Of a DNA stretch of 62,727 nt, positions 28,511 to 44,636 are shown piece by piece. The notes under the pieces were generated by a model. It saw only the letters and a program-made list of their open reading frames with translations. It had not been told where the DNA came from and ran no database searches. The stretch is from positions 1-62,727 of IMG/VR virus record IMGVR_UViG_3300009703_000018; one strand, written 5' to 3'. Within the stretch, counting starts at the first letter, position 1, and every line of letters begins with the position of its first letter. Position numbers and translations under genes: made by a program. Source of the DNA: a virus. Its lineage: Duplodnaviria; Caudoviricetes.

Positions 28511-29020
28511 ATGCCTTGGCAAAATGAAATGACTCTAATAGTTCGTCACCTAGTGAACGATTTAGATTCTAGCAATTACACTTTTACCGACGATAGACTT
28601 GAAGAGTCTGTTTTGGTTTCTGCTCAGTTAGCATCTTTAGAAATTGATTTTGAGTCTACATACACAATAGACGTAGATTCTTTGACTTTAAGCCCAGATC
28701 CAACTACATCATCTGACAAAGATGATTCTTTTATTAATTTGGTTTCGCTGAAGACAGCCCAGATGTTATTGGGTAGTGAGCTTAAAACACATTCGCTTAA
28801 TGCTATCTCTCTTAGAGATGGGCCATCAGCTTTGGATCTTAGGGGTATTGTTACTGGATTAAAGATTTTATTTGATGATATCAATAGAAGATTTGAAGAA
28901 GCTAAAACTCAATACAAACTCAACGGTGTTGTTGGACAGGCTATACTTGGGCCTTACTCACCGGGAAGTGATGCCGTAGCAAGAACACACTTAACAAATA
29001 GGTCAGGATGGTTTGAATAA
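28511..29020 (+). CDS. Head-tail adaptor-like protein
   Basis: VRHLVND...YTFTDDRL helical pattern; position in the neck region. Confidence 0.55.
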   Translation: MPWQNEMTLIVRHLVNDLDSSNYTFTDDRLEESVLVSAQLASLEIDFESTYTIDVDSLTLSPDPTTSSDKDDSFINLVSLKTAQMLLGSELKTHSLNAISLRDGPSALDLRGIVTGLKILFDDINRRFEEAKTQYKLNGVVGQAILGPYSPGSDAVARTHLTNRSGWFE

Positions 29021-31227
29021 TGGCTGAGTATAAAAAGGCAGATTTAAAAACTAAGCTAGAAGCTGACTTAGCTGATAATGATAAAGGTAATATTACAGCT
29101 AAAGTGCTTAGAAATAGCATGCTTCATATTGTTGATTCTATTACCCCAATTGTTGGTAGTGGAACACAAAACTTTTTTAAGTTTGATTTAGCTATACGCG
29201 ACAGCGGTATTACCACGGCTAACACTACGATAAACAGAATTAGTTCTAAATGGGGTACAAATAGTGTAGCTTCAATAGACTTCCAATCTGGAATTGATGC
29301 CGCTAACAAGGGAGATGGCGGCATAGATATTTATACTTCTTCTTCTGGGGTCGCTTTAGGTGGCTCAGGAAGAATGAAAAGAATATCAATAGAACCCGAA
29401 GGTCAATTTCATATATATGGAAGTGGTGTAAACCCACCTTTGAGAATTGATAGATCTCATCCAGACTCTGGCGTTGCAATGCTTGTCAGAACTAGCCCAA
29501 ATTTACTTGCTGCTAGTAGTGGAAATAGAATGTATTTTGGTCACCTTGACGAAAGAACTAGAGTCTTTGACAAGAGAATGACCATTGATCATGATGGTAA
29601 GTTTGGCTTAAACATTGAAAAACCAACAGACCCTGTGCATGTTAGGGCTTCTGGAAACGCAATAAGATATGACGTACAAAGCGCCCCAACGAATACCGCA
29701 GACATTGTCATATCAAAATACAAAGGCAATGAAGCCTTTGAGCAAGACAGCTTACTAGCAACCTTTGGAATGGGCGTTGATACAAGCGCTAGTGGAGCAG
29801 CTAGATTCTTTATTGGTTACGACGACGATAGAAAACATAGAGTAAACTTTGACGAAGCTATGTTCGTTATGACCAGCGGTGGCAAAGCGTCATTTGGATC
29901 TCTCTATCCAAAAGAACAGCTTGTTGTTGGAACTGACTTAGGAAAACACACCGTAGCGAGTGGTGACAGAGCTTTAGTGGTTGGCGCTCAATATGGTAAT
30001 GCAGAACTGTTTATAGGTTCTGGTAATGCTAATACTAATATATCTAACTTCACGCGATTTAGATGGAACAGCTCAACTAAACAACAATTTATAGAAACAA
30101 GATCAAATGGAATTACAAGACATAATCAAGTTGTCCTAGATTCCACAAACAACAATATTGGTTTTGCAAGTTCTGGAGTTAGACGAACAGATTGGCGACC
30201 TTTATTTAACACACATGTCTACTCTAGTGGAACTGTGAATGTTGCTTTAGAAAACCCAATGGGTAGCCAGTCTGCAATTTTGGTTGGTTCTAATACTTCT
30301 GGCAGCGGTGATGTTACGATTGGTAACTGGTCTTCTATTGGTTACAAATCTGCAACTGATGTATTAAAGATAAATAACTCTGGGTCTTTTATTCCTAATC
30401 ATTTAACCATTGACCGATTGGGTCATGTTGGTGTTAACACAGATTCACCTTACGATAACTTTGCTGCCGGTACAAATTACCTACACGTTAAAGGAAACAA
30501 TGCTTCGATTATGGTGGGAGACAATGCCACCTACTCAGCGATCCGTCTGTTTGGTTCTAGAAGTACAACAGACACAGCCTATATCCAAGCAGGAACTAGT
30601 GCCGCTGATACTGGAGCAAAGCTTGCTATTAGTCGATTTGATAGTGATACAAATAATATTTCTGAATTCTCTATCAGATCCGACAAAACAACTATGTACG
30701 GAAACATTGCCCTCAATGATAAGTGGGTAAGTAACGATGGCGGTGACGAAGGTATCAGAGTTGCCGATGATGGTAAGGTCGGAATCAATGTTGCATCCCC
30801 AACACACGAACTTCAGTTAAGTAGCAACTCGGCTGGTAAACCAGTTAGTTCTGTTTGGACTGTTGTTTCTGACTCTCGTGTTAAGGAAGACATAAGTGAT
30901 ATTACTGGAGCTTTAGACAAGATTGATGCGCTGAGACCAGTTAAGTTTAAGTATACACATGATTATTGCAATTGTGATCACTCTGGAAACATAGATGACG
31001 ACACTTATTACTACAACTTTATAGCGCAAGAAGTTGAGACGCATCTTCCTGAAGCTGTTACGACAACTAATATTGACGTACACAATCATGATACCGACGA
31101 AGTGTTGGTTGAAAACATAAAAACTCTAGATGCACATATTATTAACGTTTACTTAGTTTCCGCAATCAAAGAGCTTAAGACAGAACTTGATGCGGCTAAA
31201 GCAAGAATCACTGAATTAGAATCCTAA
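29020..31227 (+). CDS. Tail fibre with C-terminal intramolecular chaperone (peptidase S74)
   Basis: GxVGIxxxxP fibre repeats; SDSRVKEDI (30868), FIAQEVE, LVSAIKEL coiled coil. Confidence 0.9.
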   Translation: MAEYKKADLKTKLEADLADNDKGNITAKVLRNSMLHIVDSITPIVGSGTQNFFKFDLAIRDSGITTANTTINRISSKWGTNSVASIDFQSGIDAANKGDGGIDIYTSSSGVALGGSGRMKRISIEPEGQFHIYGSGVNPPLRIDRSHPDSGVAMLVRTSPNLLAASSGNRMYFGHLDERTRVFDKRMTIDHDGKFGLNIEKPTDPVHVRASGNAIRYDVQSAPTNTADIVISKYKGNEAFEQDSLLATFGMGVDTSASGAARFFIGYDDDRKHRVNFDEAMFVMTSGGKASFGSLYPKEQLVVGTDLGKHTVASGDRALVVGAQYGNAELFIGSGNANTNISNFTRFRWNSSTKQQFIETRSNGITRHNQVVLDSTNNNIGFASSGVRRTDWRPLFNTHVYSSGTVNVALENPMGSQSAILVGSNTSGSGDVTIGNWSSIGYKSATDVLKINNSGSFIPNHLTIDRLGHVGVNTDSPYDNFAAGTNYLHVKGNNASIMVGDNATYSAIRLFGSRSTTDTAYIQAGTSAADTGAKLAISRFDSDTNNISEFSIRSDKTTMYGNIALNDKWVSNDGGDEGIRVADDGKVGINVASPTHELQLSSNSAGKPVSSVWTVVSDSRVKEDISDITGALDKIDALRPVKFKYTHDYCNCDHSGNIDDDTYYYNFIAQEVETHLPEAVTTTNIDVHNHDTDEVLVENIKTLDAHIINVYLVSAIKELKTELDAAKARITELES

Positions 31228-36343: not shown

Positions 36344-36742
36344 ATGATGGAAGAATCATATGCAGAATTAGTTAGAAAATCGGAAAATTACAAATCCGAA
36401 AAAAATACAAAATTTAAAGAGATATCAAAAGACAGGTTGCTTAAGATATCCAAAAAGAAAGTACAAACTACCATGATTGGTGCTTTAAGCACTATAGAAA
36501 AACATCTTGGTTTTTTGTGGGGTTATGAAAGTTCTGAACCTTTAACACCAGAACAAGAACACCTCAAACAATTATATGAAGAAGTTAGGTCGGAAATACT
36601 TGACAGGGGCAATAACCAATCTAGAAATCTAGAAGCGGAATTTGCTAATTATGATATCAATTGGCTAAGGTATCAAATTACATTACCTGTTAAGAGCATT
36701 AACAAACAAGGAGAAGAAGATGGCAGTTCCAAAGAGAATTGA
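36344..36742 (+). CDS. Hypothetical tail-region protein
   Basis: AGGAG RBS; helical. Confidence 0.65.
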   Translation: MMEESYAELVRKSENYKSEKNTKFKEISKDRLLKISKKKVQTTMIGALSTIEKHLGFLWGYESSEPLTPEQEHLKQLYEEVRSEILDRGNNQSRNLEAEFANYDINWLRYQITLPVKSINKQGEEDGSSKEN

Positions 36743-37661
36743 AATAAAAGGAAAAGATTTAGACGGTAATGATAAGGTTGTTTATTTACAACTACCTAAT
36801 TCAGAAACAAACAAAGAAGCTCAATTAGCCTACAATAGGGCTTTTAGAGACGCCTTACAGTCTGGAGCTATACTGCGACAGAAACTTAATAAGGTAATGG
36901 AAGAGCAAGGTATTTGGGATCAAGAAAAAGAGCAACAATACAACGCGATTCTAGAAAAAATAAACGAAGGGGAAAAGAAACTAAGCAAAGGTGGTATCTC
37001 CCTTTCGGAAGCTAGAAGTTTAGCAATTGAAATGAGAATAAACAGGTCTGAATTCAGAAGCCTAATTGCCGAAAGAAATTCTATGGATGGCAACACAGCA
37101 GAAGGTCAGGCAGATAATGAAAGGTTTTCTCATTTACTTTACCTTTGTTTAAAAAACAATGAAGGAAAAAAGTTATTCAAGACAAAAGAAGATTATGACA
37201 ACAGTGCTGCTCTTCCTTATGTTATTGAAGCTGCTGGAGAACTAGCAGAAAAGCTTTACGGCCTTGACCCAGACTACGAAAAGAACTTACCAGAAAATAA
37301 GTTTTTACAAGCATACAAATTTACAGATCAGGCTTTACGACTTATTAACGATGACGGCCATTTAATTGATATTGATGATAATGGTGTTCAAAGACTGATT
37401 GATGAAAATGGAAGATTTATTAATTATGACAAAGAAGGTGAAAAATTCTTTGTTGATAAAGATGGAAATCGTGTAACAGAAAAAGGGGATTACGAAGAAG
37501 AGTTCTCTCCATTCTTAGACGACAAAGGAAAACCAGTAGCAATTCCGGGCGAAGAAGAGGAACAACCGGAAGAAGAGGTGGTGGCTGAAGAAGCTAAGCC
37601 AAAAAGAACGCCTCGAAAAAGGACAACTAAAAAAGCTCAATCAAAAGCAACAACCGAATAG
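36720..37661 (+). CDS. Probable tail assembly chaperone
   Basis: Acidic, directly upstream of the tape measure gene; DxxG hairpin repeats in the C-terminal part. Confidence 0.55.
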   Translation: MAVPKRIEIKGKDLDGNDKVVYLQLPNSETNKEAQLAYNRAFRDALQSGAILRQKLNKVMEEQGIWDQEKEQQYNAILEKINEGEKKLSKGGISLSEARSLAIEMRINRSEFRSLIAERNSMDGNTAEGQADNERFSHLLYLCLKNNEGKKLFKTKEDYDNSAALPYVIEAAGELAEKLYGLDPDYEKNLPENKFLQAYKFTDQALRLINDDGHLIDIDDNGVQRLIDENGRFINYDKEGEKFFVDKDGNRVTEKGDYEEEFSPFLDDKGKPVAIPGEEEEQPEEEVVAEEAKPKRTPRKRTTKKAQSKATTE

Positions 37662-37716: not shown

Positions 37717-37727
37717 AGGTGTCCCTA

Positions 37728-40700
37728 ATGGCAGAAAAATTTTCCTTAACAGCTCAGCTAAATTTACAAGCTCCTAAAAACGTAAAGCAAGTATTTAGTC
37801 AAATACAAAAGCAGTTGTCTGGAGCTACTGTAAATGTCAATGTAGCTAAGTCTGCACAAGCAGTAAAAGACTTAAATAAAGTTGCGGTTGCTACAAAAAA
37901 AATAGAAACGGAATCTAAGAAAGCGGCTAAAGGCGCTGACGTAATGGGTAAAGCTTTTGGCTCTGCTTTAAAGAACGTTCTTAGATATGACTTAGCTAGA
38001 AGAGTATTCTCTGCTTTTACAAACACTGTTGAGCAGGGCATCAAGGATGCTATTGATTTTGAAAGAGCTATGATCAGAATTGCTCAAGTTTCTGGTCGAA
38101 CGATGCAACAACTTAAAGGTCTTGAAGCCACCATAACAAGGTTGTCTACCACTCTTGGTGTCTCCTCCTCAAGTCTTGTCAAAGTTGGTTTAATTCTTAA
38201 ACAAACGGGTTTGTCTGTTAGAGACACAGAGCTTGCTATGGCTGCTCTTGCCAAGACAGAACTCGCCCCTACCTTTGACAATATCACAGATACTGCTGAA
38301 ACCGCTGTCGCTGCCATGAGACAGTTTGGTTTAGAAGCTAGTAGACTTGAAGGCTTATTGGGTAAGATCAATACGGTTGCTGCTAACTTTGCTGTTGAAT
38401 CTTCTGATATTGGTGTTGCTATTAAACGTGCCGGTGGTGCATTCAAATCTGCCGGTGGTCAAGTAGAAGAACTTATTGCGCTGTTTACTTCTGTGCGTGC
38501 TACTACTCGTGAAACCGCAGAAACTATTGCTACGGGTTTTAGAACAATCTTTACTAGATTGCAAAGACCCACAACGATCAAATTCTTACGTCAATTTGGA
38601 ATTGAATTAACAGACTTAAATGGAAAGTTTGTTGGGCCTTATGAGGCGGTTAATAGATTAAACAACGCTTTGCAAAATCTAGATCCTAGAGATCTTAGAT
38701 ATTCTCAAATAGTTGAACAGCTTGGTGGTTTTAGGCAAGTGTCTAAAGTTATTCCATTAATTCAACAATTCAATACTGCTCAAGCTGCCTATAAAGCTCA
38801 AATGGAAGGGTCGGATAGTTTAGCTCAAGATGCTGCTACCGCTCAACAATCTCTCGCCGTCCAGCTTCAGAAGCTGACTGAAAATGTAAAAGAACTATTT
38901 AGAGAAATAACGCAATCAAGCGCTTTCCAAGCTTTAGCTAAGATGGCTATTGGTCTTGCAAATGCCATTACTAAAATAGGCAAAGCCCTTGCTCCTGTTC
39001 TTCCTATTCTTGGAGCCTTTGTTGCCGCTAGAGCCGCTGCTTGGGCTGGTGGAAAATTGTTCGGTGGTGGAGTAGGTGGGTTAAATAATGCCCTTGGTAG
39101 TGCAATGGGTGATACCAGCGATGTCTACAAAGGTAATCGTGGTGGTAGAGTTCCCAAAAGATTTAGTCGTGGTGGCTGGGTTCCCGGTACAGGTAATGGG
39201 GATACTGTTCCGGCTTTGCTAGAACCGGGAGAATTTGTAATACGCAAATCAGCAGCACAGGCTTTTGGCCCAAAACTAAGTGGTATTAATAAATATGGTA
39301 GAGGTGGCGCTACAATGCACTCGGTGGGTTATGCAGGAACCCACGATGGCGATAGTTACCATGCTAGTATTACACCCACAGGACAGCCCTACACAACAAC
39401 CACAAGATTAATGGGTGCAGATGCTGTTGAAAAACCCGGAACTGGCGCTAAAGGTAAAGCAGCAAGAGATGCTTGGGCAAAAAAATACGGAGACATGCCT
39501 CATCCCGGTGATTTGGCTACAAGCATAGCTAAGAGCCATATGCGAGGAAGAGGTGGAGCAGCCTTTAATAATATGTTCTTTGATCCAAGCAAAGTAGATG
39601 ATCAGGGAAATAAAAAACAATATGGATACGATAGCACGGGTCGCAGACCACTTTTCAATGCTCCCGGCCTTGTAGAGAAACTACTAAATACCTACAGCGC
39701 AGATGGAAAACCCCTTGCTAAAAAAATGGCCAAAGGCGGCTTAGTTCCCTCCCTCCTTACTCCCGGTGAATTTGTTGTTAATAAAAAATCAGCACAAAGC
39801 ATGGGTTATGGCAAACTCCGAAGCATGAACCGTTATGCAAACGGTGGTGTTGTTAGTGGTGGTGGTGGAAATTCAAACGTTCCAATTAGTCAGGTGACTG
39901 GAGCTGGTATAGCTCTTGATCAATTAAGAGAAAGCGCTGTTAGCGGAGCGGGAGGCTTATACCAAATGGGCGAAGCCGCTACTATCGGCTACGCAAAAAC
40001 TGCTGGTATGGTAACTGGTATAGGCGCTGTTGCTGAACAGCTTGGTATGGGTGGAAAAGCTTTAGATTTCTGGACTGAAACCCTCGCAACATCAGGCGGG
40101 ATTTTATCTGGTTTTAACTCCATGATGGATCAAGCTCAATCAAGTGGATTTATGGATCAGCTTAGTGGCTTTGCCGACATGCTTGGAGACAAGAATAGTA
40201 AAGTTGGTGGCATCCTTGATAGCTTTGGAGGTAAGCTTTCCCAAAAAGGTGGAATCCTTGGAAAAGTTGGTAAAGGCATTCAAGGTGGTGGCGGCTTGAT
40301 GCAGAAGGGTTTAAAAAATGTGCAGGACTTCCGAGAAAAAGGGTTCATGTACAAATCTGTTAATAAGCAAGAAGCTAAGTTGGCACAGGTTGATCGCATA
40401 AAAGCTCAACCCGCAAAATTTAAAGCAAAAGCATTAGAACAAGCAAAAAGAGCAGAAGCTTTCAAGGGGACTGCAAGCAACCTAGGCCAAAGAGCTGGAC
40501 AAGAATTTGGCAAAGCTAAATCACTCAGAGCGCAGCAGCAAGCGTTAGTCACAAAACGTACAACCCCAATGGGTAAGGCAGGAAGGGCAGAATATCACAA
40601 GCTTGGTAAGATGGCAGACGAAGCTGAAAAAGCAGGAAAAGCTTTAAAGGCGCAAGGCCAAGCAGCAAGTGATGCTGCCAAAAAATTCGCAAAAAGCTCT

Positions 40701-43700
40701 GCTACAAACATGTCGAATTCTGCCAAGGCTACTAAAACAGTTAAAGCAATGGCTCCACAATTAACCAAGGCAGCAAAGGGTGCTAAGTTTGCTGCTATGG
40801 GATTAAAAGCGTTAAACCCCGTTGCTATTATAGCAGAAGTGGCTATAGGTAAACTAGGAAATGCAATTGAACAAGACGCCCTTAAGACAATTCAAAGTGG
40901 AGAATTTGAAGCAGAGGACGAAACTGGCCTCAAAGCAAAGGCTGCTGGTGGTAGTGCATTGAAAGGAGCCGCTACTGGTGCGGCTATTGGTATGATACTT
41001 GGCCCCTTTGGTGCTGCGGCTGGTGCTGCGGTTGGTGCTTTATGGGGTGCTGTTAAGGGTTGGATGAACGCTGCTAAAGAAATTGAAAAGGCTAAGTTTG
41101 GAAAAGCGCTTAAGAGTTTAGAAGGCTCAATGAAAGGGCTGGAAGAAGGCACATCATCTACGATGGAAGTCTTCACTGAAATGAAAAACATGAAGTCTGC
41201 CATAAAAGATTTTGGCGACTCAGTAGGTAGCGTAAAGACGGACGAAGCTAATAACAAAATAAGAGAAGCTGGAAACGCTATTCTTGATCATGCTAAAAAT
41301 AACGCTACTAGTGTAGAAGATTTTAGGGCAAGAATTAAAGACACTGTTGATTTAATGAATGAAGATGGATCTACTAGGAAAGACCAAATAGCAGCTCTAG
41401 AAAGAGAACTTGCTGCTCGACTTAAATCAGAAGCTGCCATAAAAGCAGCAGCCGAGGCACAAAGAAAGTTAACAAGAACGCTTGCTGACCTAAGAAATCT
41501 TTCAGGCATATTTAATGAAGTTAGCTATAGAGTTAAACATTTTGGTGAAATTATACAGGGAATTTCAGATCCACTGTCTGGTGGTGCTATAGCATCAATC
41601 ACTGACAGAATGAGACCAGAACAAGGGGATAAAAGGTCTATAGAAAGATTTGAAAGCACAATAGATGGTTTAAGTAATATAGCTGGAGAAGCCGGTGGTA
41701 AAACTCAGGGTCTGGGAAGGGTTGCTGGCAGAGCAAAAGAAGCAGGTTTCTTAAATAGAAATTTAGTACAAGCCATTACTTTAGCCTCAGAGTCAGGTGG
41801 TATTGAGGAAGAAGGTGGTGCTGCTAAAGCAATAATTGATCAGCTAACAAACGCCGCAACAGGAGAAGGGGGTAAATTTGATACTACTACTGGTTTAGGA
41901 AAACGTATTCAAGATCAACTCATGAAAGAAATGGATGAAGCTGATCTTAAAGAGGCGATGAAAGATCCAGCTGCTTTGGCTGAAAAACTTTCAGGAGCCG
42001 CAGATGAATACATAGAAGTATTTAAATCAGCAGGAGAGATGACAGATAAACATCTCCAGCAATTGCAGGCTGCTTATGCTCAAAAAGTAGCTATGGAACA
42101 AAGCTATATAAGCAAGATGAATTCTATTGCAGATCAAGAGTTTGCAATGGAAGAAAGATCAAGAGCAAGGCTTGGTAAAGACCCAGCAACTAATGCAGAA
42201 GTGCAAGCTCAATTCGGTTCAAAGGTCGGTAGAATGACCGCCGGTGTTGGTGGAATTGGTGGATTGAAGACGGGTGTTGCAAAAACGACTCTCTCAGCAG
42301 GGGGTGGCGTAGGTGATGTAGGAGCCGTAGGCGCAGCTTTTAGTGAAACTAGTGCAGCATTGGCTGAAAGCAACGCAGAGATGGCATCATTAGGCTTATC
42401 ATTTAGCGATTTAGCAGATAAGGGAAAAAGCCTATCAGACTCCCAAAAAGAACTTATACAAAAAAACTCAGATCTTAAGAGCGACTACGGAACTCTTCAG
42501 GGCGTACTGAATGAATACGCTAACTCACAACAAAGACTGACCGCTCTTAATAAAGAAGCCGCAGATGCCAGCAAGAGAACAGGAACGCTCAAAGACCTTG
42601 CCATACAGTCTCAGTACGGAACAGCAGAAGAAAAAGATTCAGCTAATAGACTTATCAATGCTGTTGCCATAGCTCAAACAGAAGGCTTGGATGCCGTTGC
42701 TCCCGAATTACAAAAACAAGTAATTGGAATACTTGAAAATATGGGAGAAGGGGACATAGTCAATAAAGACCTTGAAGCTAAAGGTTTTGGTGGTGCAGGA
42801 ATTACTACAGCAAGTGCTGAACAAGAAAGAATTGACAGTGAAATTAAAGATGTCGAAAAACAAGGAATAGATGCTCAAAAAGCATTAGCTGCTGAAGAAA
42901 AAAGTCGAATTGAAGAAATGTCAAAGACCATTGAAGATCTTCATAAAACTTTTATCAAAGAGCTTAAGTCTTTGTTTATTGCAGCAGACAGTAGGCGCGT
43001 AAAAGCAGAGTTAGCAGCAGCAGATGTGGCAGTTGATAAACAAACAGGCCAAATGGAAAAGCTTGTCAAGATTGCTGAAGCACAGACTGGTAAAAAGGGT
43101 CAAGAAGCTTACGATCAGTTCTTTGGTAGTAAGAGTGGTGGAAAAGGTCAAGCACGATTAGATGTAATTACCAGTGGAAAATTGAGAGAGGACAGAGCGA
43201 AGGTAGTTCAGGCTTCTAAAATGAAAACGCTTTTGGGAGGAGATGTCAAAAGAACCAAAGGCATGAGTAGTGGTGATGCCTTAGATACTGGCGATGCTAA
43301 TATCAAACAAAGCTTGATTGCGAAGAAACTTCTTGGTGATGAGCTTAGCACTTTCCAAAACCTAAGAAATGTCAGCACGCTTGATTTTGAAGCAACGCTT
43401 GATCAAAGTGGTGGAGAAGCCGGTGGGGTTGACGACTATAGACAGTCGATGGCTGACATCGAAGCGAACATGAAGAAGAACTACGAAGCATTAGGTCTTG
43501 GCGGTAAATATGACGAAAAAACTGGCAAAATGACCGCTGATGGTGAAGGATTTGAAAAGATAAAAGCAGCTGCCAAAAAAGAACTAATGGATGAAAAGGA
43601 AATCAAAGCAGATGAATTTGATTCAACTGTCACAGCCACAGAGCTTTATGGAAGAATTTTGTCTAAGATAGAGTCAGAAGCCATAACTGCTCAAGAAATG

Positions 43701-44636
43701 GGTACTAGAAAAGCCAAATCTGCTGGAGGTTTAGGATTCAAGGTCATGTCGGGTGGGGGAGCGACAAGCACCACCGTAGCCAAGTCCTTACAGGGTGTAA
43801 AAGTTGGTGGTGGGGAAAATGATATAGCAAATACTCTTGCGGCTTCCCAAGCAGATCAAGCAGCCGCTAAAGCTTCGTTAGATACATTAGCAACAGAAGC
43901 AACAAATGGTAATAGTCTTGATACGCATGATCATACAGCAGAAAGTTTATTAAAGGCTATATTAGACACACTTCAGGGTAAAAAAGTTAAGGGAGCCGCC
44001 GAAAAGACAGGCGAGACAATGAAGAAATCTCTCTCAGACATAGCCAAACAGGTTCATGGCCAAAAAGTTGAAACTGCTCCCATCACTAAAATGGATGAAA
44101 AGATAAAGGCGGCTATCGACAAAATGGGTGTATATGTTGGGGGTACTACAGCTCTGAACGAAGACATGGCGCAGACTATAAGTGGTGGTGGCCCGTTCAT
44201 GGGCGGTTTTTCTGGAGGTGGTGATGCGGCGCAGATGATAGCGGCTGCTGCTGCTGCTATCAACCCACAAGAACTCCGTCCTGATTCTTCGGGCGAGGGT
44301 ACTGTGGATTGGTCGGCAGATACTGAAGGTCTAAATGATAGTATTTCAAGATTCTCAAAAGCAACAGAAGAGCTTGGTGGAGTTATGGGTAATGCGCTTT
44401 CTGTCGAAGTTGGTGGTACTATAGATGTAAACGTTAATATGAATGGTGCAGAATTCCTAAAGGGTGCGCAAGATTCTCTAGGAAAGTATGCTTCGCAGCA
44501 AGTAAGTAAGGGTATTAATAACTTTATTACCCAAGGATTAAAAAACAATAACGTAAAAACAAGGCCAGACTGGGTTAATGAAGGTGGAACAAACGGCATT
44601 CCCGGTAGTAGTAATAATGAATCTGGGAGCATGTAA
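37728..44636 (+). CDS. Tail tape measure protein (TP901-like core) with embedded nuclease domain
   Basis: FERAMIRIAQVSG, ETAETIATGFRTIFTRLQR, GGFRQ core; A/K/G-rich helices; glycine-zipper hydrophobic segments; ATG 37728 behind AGGTG. Confidence 0.92.
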   Translation: MAEKFSLTAQLNLQAPKNVKQVFSQIQKQLSGATVNVNVAKSAQAVKDLNKVAVATKKIETESKKAAKGADVMGKAFGSALKNVLRYDLARRVFSAFTNTVEQGIKDAIDFERAMIRIAQVSGRTMQQLKGLEATITRLSTTLGVSSSSLVKVGLILKQTGLSVRDTELAMAALAKTELAPTFDNITDTAETAVAAMRQFGLEASRLEGLLGKINTVAANFAVESSDIGVAIKRAGGAFKSAGGQVEELIALFTSVRATTRETAETIATGFRTIFTRLQRPTTIKFLRQFGIELTDLNGKFVGPYEAVNRLNNALQNLDPRDLRYSQIVEQLGGFRQVSKVIPLIQQFNTAQAAYKAQMEGSDSLAQDAATAQQSLAVQLQKLTENVKELFREITQSSAFQALAKMAIGLANAITKIGKALAPVLPILGAFVAARAAAWAGGKLFGGGVGGLNNALGSAMGDTSDVYKGNRGGRVPKRFSRGGWVPGTGNGDTVPALLEPGEFVIRKSAAQAFGPKLSGINKYGRGGATMHSVGYAGTHDGDSYHASITPTGQPYTTTTRLMGADAVEKPGTGAKGKAARDAWAKKYGDMPHPGDLATSIAKSHMRGRGGAAFNNMFFDPSKVDDQGNKKQYGYDSTGRRPLFNAPGLVEKLLNTYSADGKPLAKKMAKGGLVPSLLTPGEFVVNKKSAQSMGYGKLRSMNRYANGGVVSGGGGNSNVPISQVTGAGIALDQLRESAVSGAGGLYQMGEAATIGYAKTAGMVTGIGAVAEQLGMGGKALDFWTETLATSGGILSGFNSMMDQAQSSGFMDQLSGFADMLGDKNSKVGGILDSFGGKLSQKGGILGKVGKGIQGGGGLMQKGLKNVQDFREKGFMYKSVNKQEAKLAQVDRIKAQPAKFKAKALEQAKRAEAFKGTASNLGQRAGQEFGKAKSLRAQQQALVTKRTTPMGKAGRAEYHKLGKMADEAEKAGKALKAQGQAASDAAKKFAKSSATNMSNSAKATKTVKAMAPQLTKAAKGAKFAAMGLKALNPVAIIAEVAIGKLGNAIEQDALKTIQSGEFEAEDETGLKAKAAGGSALKGAATGAAIGMILGPFGAAAGAAVGALWGAVKGWMNAAKEIEKAKFGKALKSLEGSMKGLEEGTSSTMEVFTEMKNMKSAIKDFGDSVGSVKTDEANNKIREAGNAILDHAKNNATSVEDFRARIKDTVDLMNEDGSTRKDQIAALERELAARLKSEAAIKAAAEAQRKLTRTLADLRNLSGIFNEVSYRVKHFGEIIQGISDPLSGGAIASITDRMRPEQGDKRSIERFESTIDGLSNIAGEAGGKTQGLGRVAGRAKEAGFLNRNLVQAITLASESGGIEEEGGAAKAIIDQLTNAATGEGGKFDTTTGLGKRIQDQLMKEMDEADLKEAMKDPAALAEKLSGAADEYIEVFKSAGEMTDKHLQQLQAAYAQKVAMEQSYISKMNSIADQEFAMEERSRARLGKDPATNAEVQAQFGSKVGRMTAGVGGIGGLKTGVAKTTLSAGGGVGDVGAVGAAFSETSAALAESNAEMASLGLSFSDLADKGKSLSDSQKELIQKNSDLKSDYGTLQGVLNEYANSQQRLTALNKEAADASKRTGTLKDLAIQSQYGTAEEKDSANRLINAVAIAQTEGLDAVAPELQKQVIGILENMGEGDIVNKDLEAKGFGGAGITTASAEQERIDSEIKDVEKQGIDAQKALAAEEKSRIEEMSKTIEDLHKTFIKELKSLFIAADSRRVKAELAAADVAVDKQTGQMEKLVKIAEAQTGKKGQEAYDQFFGSKSGGKGQARLDVITSGKLREDRAKVVQASKMKTLLGGDVKRTKGMSSGDALDTGDANIKQSLIAKKLLGDELSTFQNLRNVSTLDFEATLDQSGGEAGGVDDYRQSMADIEANMKKNYEALGLGGKYDEKTGKMTADGEGFEKIKAAAKKELMDEKEIKADEFDSTVTATELYGRILSKIESEAITAQEMGTRKAKSAGGLGFKVMSGGGATSTTVAKSLQGVKVGGGENDIANTLAASQADQAAAKASLDTLATEATNGNSLDTHDHTAESLLKAILDTLQGKKVKGAAEKTGETMKKSLSDIAKQVHGQKVETAPITKMDEKIKAAIDKMGVYVGGTTALNEDMAQTISGGGPFMGGFSGGGDAAQMIAAAAAAINPQELRPDSSGEGTVDWSADTEGLNDSISRFSKATEELGGVMGNALSVEVGGTIDVNVNMNGAEFLKGAQDSLGKYASQQVSKGINNFITQGLKNNNVKTRPDWVNEGGTNGIPGSSNNESGSM
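39309..39725 (+). other. Staphylococcal nuclease (thermonuclease)-like domain within the tape measure protein
   Basis: HDGDS / RLMGADAVE / YDSTGR match SNase IDGDT / RLLLVDTPE / DKYGR. Confidence 0.75.

Follow-up and report, generated by a model that had tools for sequence, protein, structure and literature searches.

The DNA analyzed here, hereafter the window, is the complete IMG/VR virus record IMGVR_UViG_3300009703_000018, a linear sequence of 62,727 bases from an uncultured marine phage (39.8% G+C; completeness estimate 41%) that encodes a large terminase and a long plus-strand structural module. Within this module, the open reading frame (ORF) 37719..44636 specifies a protein of 2305 amino acids (aa) in which two copies of a junction module (GG..VP.LL.PGEFV) enclose an insert resembling staphylococcal nuclease (SNase), which an initial annotation, made from the sequence alone, had proposed to be a nuclease cargo of a tape measure protein (TMP). 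Family domains and gene order establish the ORF as a TP901-type TMP: TIGR01760 matches aa 99-436 (E 1.8e-34; 119.3 bits against a cut-off of 28.8), PF10145 matches aa 137-336 (E 1.5e-28; 100.5 bits against 33.2), five TMP PHROGs match the protein (best E 2.9e-31), and the order of tail genes around it is common to the window and two IMG/VR relatives, L003 and L004. These lines of evidence also support the annotated placement of the insert within a TMP. The database form of the protein (P0003) has 2302 aa, and the ORFs lying within its gene are all antisense. The features on which the argument turns are the following:

37719..44636, + strand: TMP gene, 2305 aa, GTG start as listed (ORF list and translation)
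38013..39026, + strand: conserved N-terminal TMP domain (TIGR01760 / PF10145), aa 99-436 (profile matches)
39150..39317, + strand: junction module copy 1 (GG..VP.LL.PGEFV...YGRGG), aa 478-533 (local motif hidden Markov model [HMM], E 4e-23)
39309..39725, + strand: predicted SNase-like nuclease domain (putative cargo), aa 531-669 (insert profile against PDB, AlphaFold2, Foldseek)
39345..39353, + strand: D543-G544-D545, equivalents of SNase D19-G20-D21, predicted Ca2+ site (invariant in 31/31 inserts)
39405..39431, + strand: R563, D568-A569 and E571, equivalents of SNase R35, D40 and E43 (invariant in 31/31 inserts)
39645..39647, + strand: R643, equivalent of R87 in the ..YGR stretch of SNase (kept in at least 90% of 31 inserts)
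39732..39860, + strand: junction module copy 2, aa 672-714 (local motif HMM, E 2e-17)

Translation of 39162-39854 reproduces exactly both repeat copies that had been described (39162-39308 and 39726-39848), along with the ~139-aa insert and its HDGDS, RLMGADAVE and YDSTGR stretches. We aligned the window insert with 30 homologous inserts from related TMPs (n=31), which, apart from one fragment at 80%, share 19-53% identity with it. Throughout this alignment D13, G14, D15, R33, D38, A39 and E41 (insert numbering) are invariant (31/31), and R113 is retained in at least 90% of the sequences, a pattern that points to selection on the active site. Searched against 177,635 PDB sequences, the insert profile recovered SNase from S. 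aureus (PF00565; PDB 1stn, 3d6c) with a best E of 5.2e-7 over residues 13-136 of 149; there were 205 matches at E<=10, and among the 60 listed, 59 are variants of S. aureus nuclease/thermonuclease, the remaining one being 'Nuclease A' (8k2t_C). The profile alignment pairs the DGD, R-x4-D-x2-E and R of the insert with D19-G20-D21, R35/D40/E43 and R87 of SNase, where D21, D40, E43, R35 and R87 serve as Ca2+ ligands or catalytic residues. The proposed presence of all catalytic equivalents thus holds, those of D19, D21, R35, D40 and E43 in every insert and that of R87 in at least 90%. The accompanying claim of identical local spacing is correct for R-D-E (+5, +8) and for D..GR; the interval from DGD to R, in contrast, is 4 residues longer than in SNase, whose row in the profile alignment has 4 gap columns here.

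Structural comparison pointed in the same direction. The AlphaFold2 model of the insert, computed from the 31-sequence alignment, is of high confidence (predicted local distance difference test [pLDDT] 95.1; predicted template modelling score [pTM] 0.86) and shows strands and helices in the order seen in SNase. With this model as query, the top 50 Foldseek matches in PDB are all SNase at a probability of ~1.00, though the match is weak (best E 1.9e-3; template modelling [TM] score 0.41), and the top matches in BFVD are SNase/TNase-like proteins of phages and giant viruses. What the insert has in common with SNase is therefore the profile match, the strand and helix order and the DGD/R/D..E/R residues; it differs in its first hairpin, longer by 4 residues, and in being internal to a 2305-aa virion protein, SNase itself being a secreted enzyme. 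Taken together, the profile and the model make it very probable that this TMP contains an SNase-fold cassette, and, judged from its sequence, the cassette is also fairly likely to be an active nuclease.

The same data bear on a purely structural role, in which an SNase-like OB (oligonucleotide/oligosaccharide-binding) fold would bind nucleic acid, for example guiding the leading end of the genome, or would act as an assembly spacer. OB folds often bind nucleic acids, the insert resembles the enzyme only weakly in fold (TM ~0.4), and a domain in the N-terminal quarter would lie near the genome end if the C-terminus sits at the tail tip, as in lambda (PMC12617516). Binding, however, has no need of the set of two Asp, one Glu and two Arg, which is (nearly) invariant at the low identities given above, and a spacer would not be swapped for unrelated domains, an ADP-ribosyltransferase (ART) among them, in close relatives. 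We consider a structural or DNA-handling role improbable.

Outside TMPs, the insert left little trace in sequence searches. As a single query against 1.84 billion representative proteins it gave only seven matches at E<=1e-3, all of them TMPs or TMP fragments still carrying module flanks; tblastn against 50,697 phage records returned no match, and an ESM Atlas search (0.88) is retained as a lead only.

We then considered the repeats themselves, using a local HMM built from 399 module instances in relatives. The module is ~50 aa long and glycine-rich on both sides, and the HMM finds exactly two copies in the whole window, both inside the TMP ORF. The two align by BLASTP with 20/38 identities (53%; E 2e-12), and at the DNA level no repeat longer than 12-22 nt links them, indicating that the duplication is old and has been maintained at the protein level; a recent duplication or recombination scar is thereby rejected as the origin of the pair. 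Separately, immediately ahead of module copy 1, a pair of consecutive ..RGG.VP.. mini-units is encoded by a 22-nt direct repeat (39134-39155 / 39164-39185), whose copies share 82% identity at a distance of 30 nt.

To recover relatives, we searched window TMP aa 470-730 against proteins of 1267-4034 aa, obtaining 2769 matches at E<=1e-3; nearly all of the 120 listed belong to PF10145 and come from metagenomes, marine ones and others. The set analyzed, 120 large proteins (that of the window and 119 relatives), like the sample of 80 IMG/VR loci described below, is biased towards query-like sequences. The module occurs in 120/120 of them, in 1-7 copies each, and its first copy always lies shortly past the N-terminal TMP domain. 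It is also seen in TMPs of Gordonia phages and proteins of T4-like cyanophages, and many TMP PHROGs carry it, usually near their C-termini. Lambda gpH has one copy at aa 727-786 of 853 (local HMM, E 8.4e-10), just past PF09718 (aa 627-701). No Pfam or NCBIfam model covers the module in either the window TMP or lambda gpH. On this distribution, the PGEFV repeats are an ancient, general TMP module and no private bracket for SNase cargo: the notion that they mark the borders of a slot stands insofar as they do bound the cassette, and has to be qualified insofar as the module recurs up to seven times per TMP and once in lambda gpH.

The copy in lambda gpH invites comparison with a TMP whose maturation has been studied. 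A published report (PMC12617516) describes gpHC as the C-terminal piece of gpH, cut in a glycine-rich region at an unmapped site and resolved at aa 818-849 only, where it is bound to the hub protein gpI; gpH* forms a periplasmic channel, and gpHC may be released. The two TMPs share the junction module, that of gpH lying inside the cleaved-off gpHC, and they differ in their N-terminal families (PF06791 in gpH, PF10145 in the window TMP) and in the setting of the module: gpH has one copy near the C-terminus and no known enzyme domain, whereas the window TMP has two in its N-terminal third, enclosing an enzyme-like domain.

From this comparison arises a polyprotein explanation, in which the modules would be processing sites, cut during tail maturation or ejection in the way that gpH is split into gpH* and gpHC, freeing an SNase-type enzyme of ~20 kDa that would no longer act in tethered form. 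The module of gpH falls inside the part of gpHC (~690-817) that cryo-EM left unresolved, and its stretch adjoins the glycine-rich region in which gpH is cut (PMC12617516); moreover, modules occur at every cargo boundary and are flanked by glycine-rich sequence. Since the cleavage site in lambda is unmapped, though, the connection between module and cut is positional only. Cleavage of multi-module TMPs is itself putative, a TMP cut at aa ~480 and ~715 must still measure tail length beforehand, and a single-sequence search against solved structures gave no match. We regard processing at the modules as somewhat unlikely; it complements the delivery of a nuclease, discussed below, more than it competes with it. 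In its broadest form, giant TMPs would be virion-packaged polyproteins whose junctions are cut on ejection, releasing free enzymes into the host, namely an SNase-type nuclease here and an ART or an undescribed G..E/D/(D/E)xK domain elsewhere. This generalization is unlikely; if true, it would amount to phage-borne polymorphic effector delivery in thousands of marine phages and would account for the cleavage of gpH into gpH* and gpHC. As a candidate element to mutate, the module would also open to direct test the old problem of the place of, and the reason for, the cut in lambda gpH.

Comparison of related TMPs reveals that what lies between the modules changes far faster than what surrounds it. 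Relative to the window TMP, the N-terminal TMP domain is 54-90% identical over 16 relatives, module copy 1 66-86% and module copy 2 67-91%; taken as segments, the flanks retain 54-91% identity and the slot 17-43%. Four relatives illustrate the pattern, each compared with the window TMP:

P0005: N-terminus 90%, module 1 84%, slot 37%, module 2 91%; slot still SNase, very diverged
P0037: N-terminus 81%, module 1 79%, slot 25%, module 2 79%; slot unrelated
P0051: N-terminus 66%, module 1 75%, slot 19%, module 2 77%
P0054: N-terminus 67%, module 1 77%, slot 19%, module 2 81%

The transitions are abrupt: identity to P0005 is 100% at aa 421-500, falls to 35-45% right past the end of module 1 and is back at 95% at aa 681-700, and BLAST alignments with P0051 and P0054 end at aa 530-543 and restart at aa 655-672. 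Among 117 TMPs, the first inter-module slot holds an SNase motif in 41 (34 by a strict pattern), a different domain of ~115 aa in 46, both in 2 and neither in 32, amounting to at least four content classes, and slot lengths range from 41 to about 940 aa. Wherever the SNase-motif domain occurs it directly follows module 1 (all 41 TMPs), and it is absent from later inter-module segments (0/205). In a second, independent sample, 80 IMG/VR loci picked by short patterns of the query, the module was present in 80/80; 5 loci held an SNase-like domain, 33 the other domain and 2 both. In 5/5 loci having it, the SNase-like domain starts -2 to 69 aa past a module copy. The two relatives with the tail-gene order of the window are themselves split, L003 carrying SNase and L004 the other domain. 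The swappable slot that the initial annotation had proposed to look for in homologous TMPs is thus found, with unrelated domains between the modules and identity breaking at their edges: as far as alignments can tell, the slot is exchangeable, with breakpoints at the module edges. Such rapid turnover of cargo suggests an arms race with the host.

A slot of this kind might also harbor a passenger that is neutral or decayed, left behind when a mobile insertion entered a tolerant linker and now devoid of function. It does tolerate many unrelated sequences over the whole range of lengths given above, and the 32 of 117 first slots with neither recognized domain include four that were scanned and gave no Pfam match. 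The insert studied here, on the other hand, yields a very confident model (pLDDT 95), keeps its catalytic residues invariant in 31/31 sequences and occupies the same position past module 1 in all 41 TMPs, never a later slot. A neutral passenger is already disfavored by these properties, and we hold it to be highly improbable.

A search also reached two Ralstonia phage records that cover 97% of the query; in the one examined (H1) there are two modules and SNase was not found. The record of Ralstonia phage YO026_2 (L002; unannotated, organism unverified) has an open frame in which aa 1044-1288 contain two module copies ~120 aa apart, and the content of this slot is neither SNase-like nor matched by the profile of the ~115-aa alternative domain.

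This alternative domain is the commonest first-slot cargo (46/117 TMPs; 33/80 IMG/VR loci) and is Pfam-dark; examples from the alignment of relatives are as follows:

L004 TMP, aa 661-757: ~115-aa alternative domain
P0115, aa ~560-680: ~115-aa alternative domain

Across 30 sequences of this domain, G47 and E51 never vary, D73 and K97 persist in at least 90%, and the residues follow the order E ... D ... (D/E)xK. AlphaFold2 (pLDDT 82) models the domain as five helices, with just two single-residue bridges besides; Foldseek against PDB found no match at E<=0.001 (best E 3.7), and the profile of the domain gave a single match in PDB, at E 1.5. We accordingly rejected its assignment as a PD-(D/E)xK nuclease, since the model is all-helical, lacks the alpha-beta-beta-beta-alpha-beta restriction-endonuclease fold and has no PDB match; the ~115-aa G..E/D/(D/E)xK domain is an undescribed family.

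Further contents came to light in individual relatives. The ART family PF03496 scores above its Pfam cut-off in the first slot of two of them:

P0063, aa 689-780: ART domain, together with SNase in the first slot
P0110, aa 1278-1442: ART domain, within an 872-aa first slot

The slot of P0110 starts with a DxDxT-like stretch, which resembles the motif of haloacid dehalogenase (HAD) phosphatases. In L008, a 238-kb IMG/VR contig, a 1200-aa slot (TMP frame aa 671-1884) contains, in order, an SNase-like domain, a segment with a Walker-A-like GxxGxGKT and the G..E/D/(D/E)xK domain, separated by short [FY]xxGG junctions without the PGEFV part. A Pfam scan of 10 non-SNase slot segments and six whole relatives yielded nothing beyond PF10145, so that most cargo is Pfam-dark.

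These observations lead us to the following reading: aa 531-669 would be a folded, probably catalytically competent SNase-fold nuclease, carried as an exchangeable cassette and delivered to cut nucleic acid, an interpretation that we place slightly on the favorable side of even. By the example of lambda gpH*, T5 pb2 and the P23-45 TMP, the protein would fill the tail tube and, on ejection, precede the DNA into the host envelope. On that account the cassette would arrive in the periplasm or cytoplasm as soon as infection starts, and might there cut host DNA or RNA, or rival incoming DNA. The S. aureus nuclease needs millimolar Ca2+. A cassette sharing this dependence would be nearly silent in the low-Ca2+ cytoplasm of the producer and active in the Ca2+-rich periplasm of a marine host, and a quiet enzyme of this kind would make an immunity gene unnecessary. 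That the cassette acts on host nucleic acid after delivery is possible, if on balance somewhat doubtful.

Hydrophobic segments lie on either side of the cassette:

38964..39062, + strand: hydrophobic segment, aa 416-448, just 5' of module copy 1 (Kyte-Doolittle, 19-residue window, peak 1.76)
40779..41054, + strand: hydrophobic / glycine-zipper segments, aa 1021-1050 and 1083-1112 (hydropathy peaks 1.54 and 1.72)

Over one stretch of 30 residues the second region contains neither charged residues nor the polar Q, N or H, and its Pfam matches to Gly-zipper and DUF1269 are weak and below their cut-offs; we infer a membrane role for both regions. Lying between them, the cassette could sit on the periplasmic side of a membrane-inserted TMP, an arrangement compatible with a nuclease stationed at the entry channel, in the periplasm or at the inner membrane, and aimed not at the host chromosome but at co-infecting phage or plasmid DNA or at the nucleic-acid signals or guides of host immunity. 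An enzyme dependent on Ca2+ would be active in the marine periplasm and not in the cytoplasm, and very fast cargo turnover is typical of conflict systems. This anti-competitor or anti-defence role is nevertheless wholly inferential, the phage's own DNA goes through the same place, and the Ca2+ argument may fail, as some SNase homologs reportedly use Mg2+ (PMC3585158); for both kinds of target we deem it distinctly unlikely.

Enzymes carried by TMPs are not without precedent. In Thermus phage P23-45 the TMP, gp96, is joined to a virion RNA polymerase responsible for transcribing the pre-early genes (PMC10770324), and peptidoglycan hydrolase domains are present in T5 pb2 and in further TMPs (PMC12617516). 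P23-45 gp96, T5 pb2 and, putatively, the window TMP are alike in that the TMP also transports an enzyme acting at the onset of infection. The window cargo differs from both in having a nuclease fold, and not that of a polymerase or muralytic enzyme, and in being internal, repeat-bounded and swapped among close relatives. An SNase-related domain has been noted on another virion protein: an account from 2007 places one on the baseplate hub protein of BtI1, an element related to Bacillus phage 0305phi8-36, where it replaces the cell-wall-degrading domains of relatives, and offers no explanation there (PMC2147016). The likeness is one of description only, BtI1 being a Gram-positive prophage-like element with the domain on a hub protein, not a TMP, and with no repeated junction module (PMC2147016).

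A closer parallel in organization is offered by the polymorphic toxins and effectors (Rhs, contact-dependent inhibition [CDI] and the type VI secretion system [T6SS] effector Tde1), which likewise combine a conserved delivery part with a fast-exchanged enzymatic module, here a predicted nuclease or ART. Translocation of the T6SS DNase Tde1 depends on glycine-zipper/transmembrane segments of the kind also seen in TMPs (PMC10240207). Unlike these toxins, the window cassette is internal and not C-terminal, would have the virion as its delivery machine and is of putative toxicity. It also lacks an adjacent immunity gene: the upstream neighbor of the TMP gene is an ORF of 313 aa and the downstream one an ORF of 880 aa, and no small ORF or immunity gene adjoins it in the window, L003 or L004 (3/3 loci), just as had been remarked at the outset. 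Of the label 'polymorphic effector' applied in the initial annotation, the conserved carrier, the variable cassette and the ART in some slots are thus borne out, and the cognate immunity gene is missing.

Several points weigh against delivery of an active nuclease. At the level of the fold, PF00565 is unmatched in the window insert at E<=10 and was not found in the window record, matching the inserts of 2/31 relatives with a best E of 0.0015, and a PDB search with the single insert sequence returned 0 matches. No Foldseek match reaches E<=0.001, the TM score of ~0.4 being accompanied by a root-mean-square deviation of 9-10 A, and in the model two additional helices stand between helix 1 and strand 4, while the last helix of SNase is absent. 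The weak TM score, extra helices and missing C-terminal helix mean that the fold match is to a remodelled SNase; judged by profile and model, the insert belongs to the SNase superfamily as a divergent and remodelled member whose catalytic set is intact, outside Pfam-level membership. Regarding the slot, profile, model and Foldseek comparisons found no recognizable nuclease fold in the commonest alternative cargo, so that the slot is not demonstrably 'always a nuclease'. As to function, the nuclease activity and the delivery of the cassette are both putative. By its place in the N-terminal quarter, and by analogy with lambda, the cassette would be head-proximal, last to leave the tail and nearest the phage DNA end, an awkward position for an unregulated nuclease. 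A strictly Ca2+-dependent enzyme would, furthermore, be inactive in the host cytoplasm, where host DNA is, and the missing immunity gene sets the system apart from classical polymorphic toxins.

TMPs have been known to enter the host first, and a few bear an enzyme, either a cell-wall hydrolase or, in the case of P23-45, an RNA polymerase. What appears to be new is a nuclease-fold domain in a TMP, set in a defined slot bounded by a module also present in lambda gpH, whose content is traded for unrelated domains, including ART, among related phages. A literature search, with subscription journals outside its reach, found no mention of an SNase domain in a TMP or of module-bounded cargo slots. 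The architecture is common, with 2769 large, TMP-sized proteins matching the region. Should the cargo be active and delivered, phage tails would inject preformed, rapidly evolving enzymes ahead of all phage gene expression, which, if true, would add a new layer of host takeover or counter-defence.

A few observations concern the remainder of the TMP and its surroundings. A weak Pfam match to bacterial EndoU nuclease, probably due to chance, lies close to the TMP C-terminus (44052-44285, aa 2112-2189; E 0.15; 12.9 bits, cut-off 25.3). Directly 5' of the TMP gene, the ORFs 36344-36742 and 36720-37661 overlap by 23 nt, the second lying in the +1 frame relative to the first and having its own ATG; neither matches a PHROG family, and the pair occupies the usual place of the tail assembly chaperones with programmed frameshift. 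Most other structural ORFs in the window are likewise without a PHROG family match. At 29020-31227, ~6.5 kb upstream of the TMP gene and not downstream, lies the gene for a protein resembling tail fibres (PHROG tail fiber, E 6e-19).

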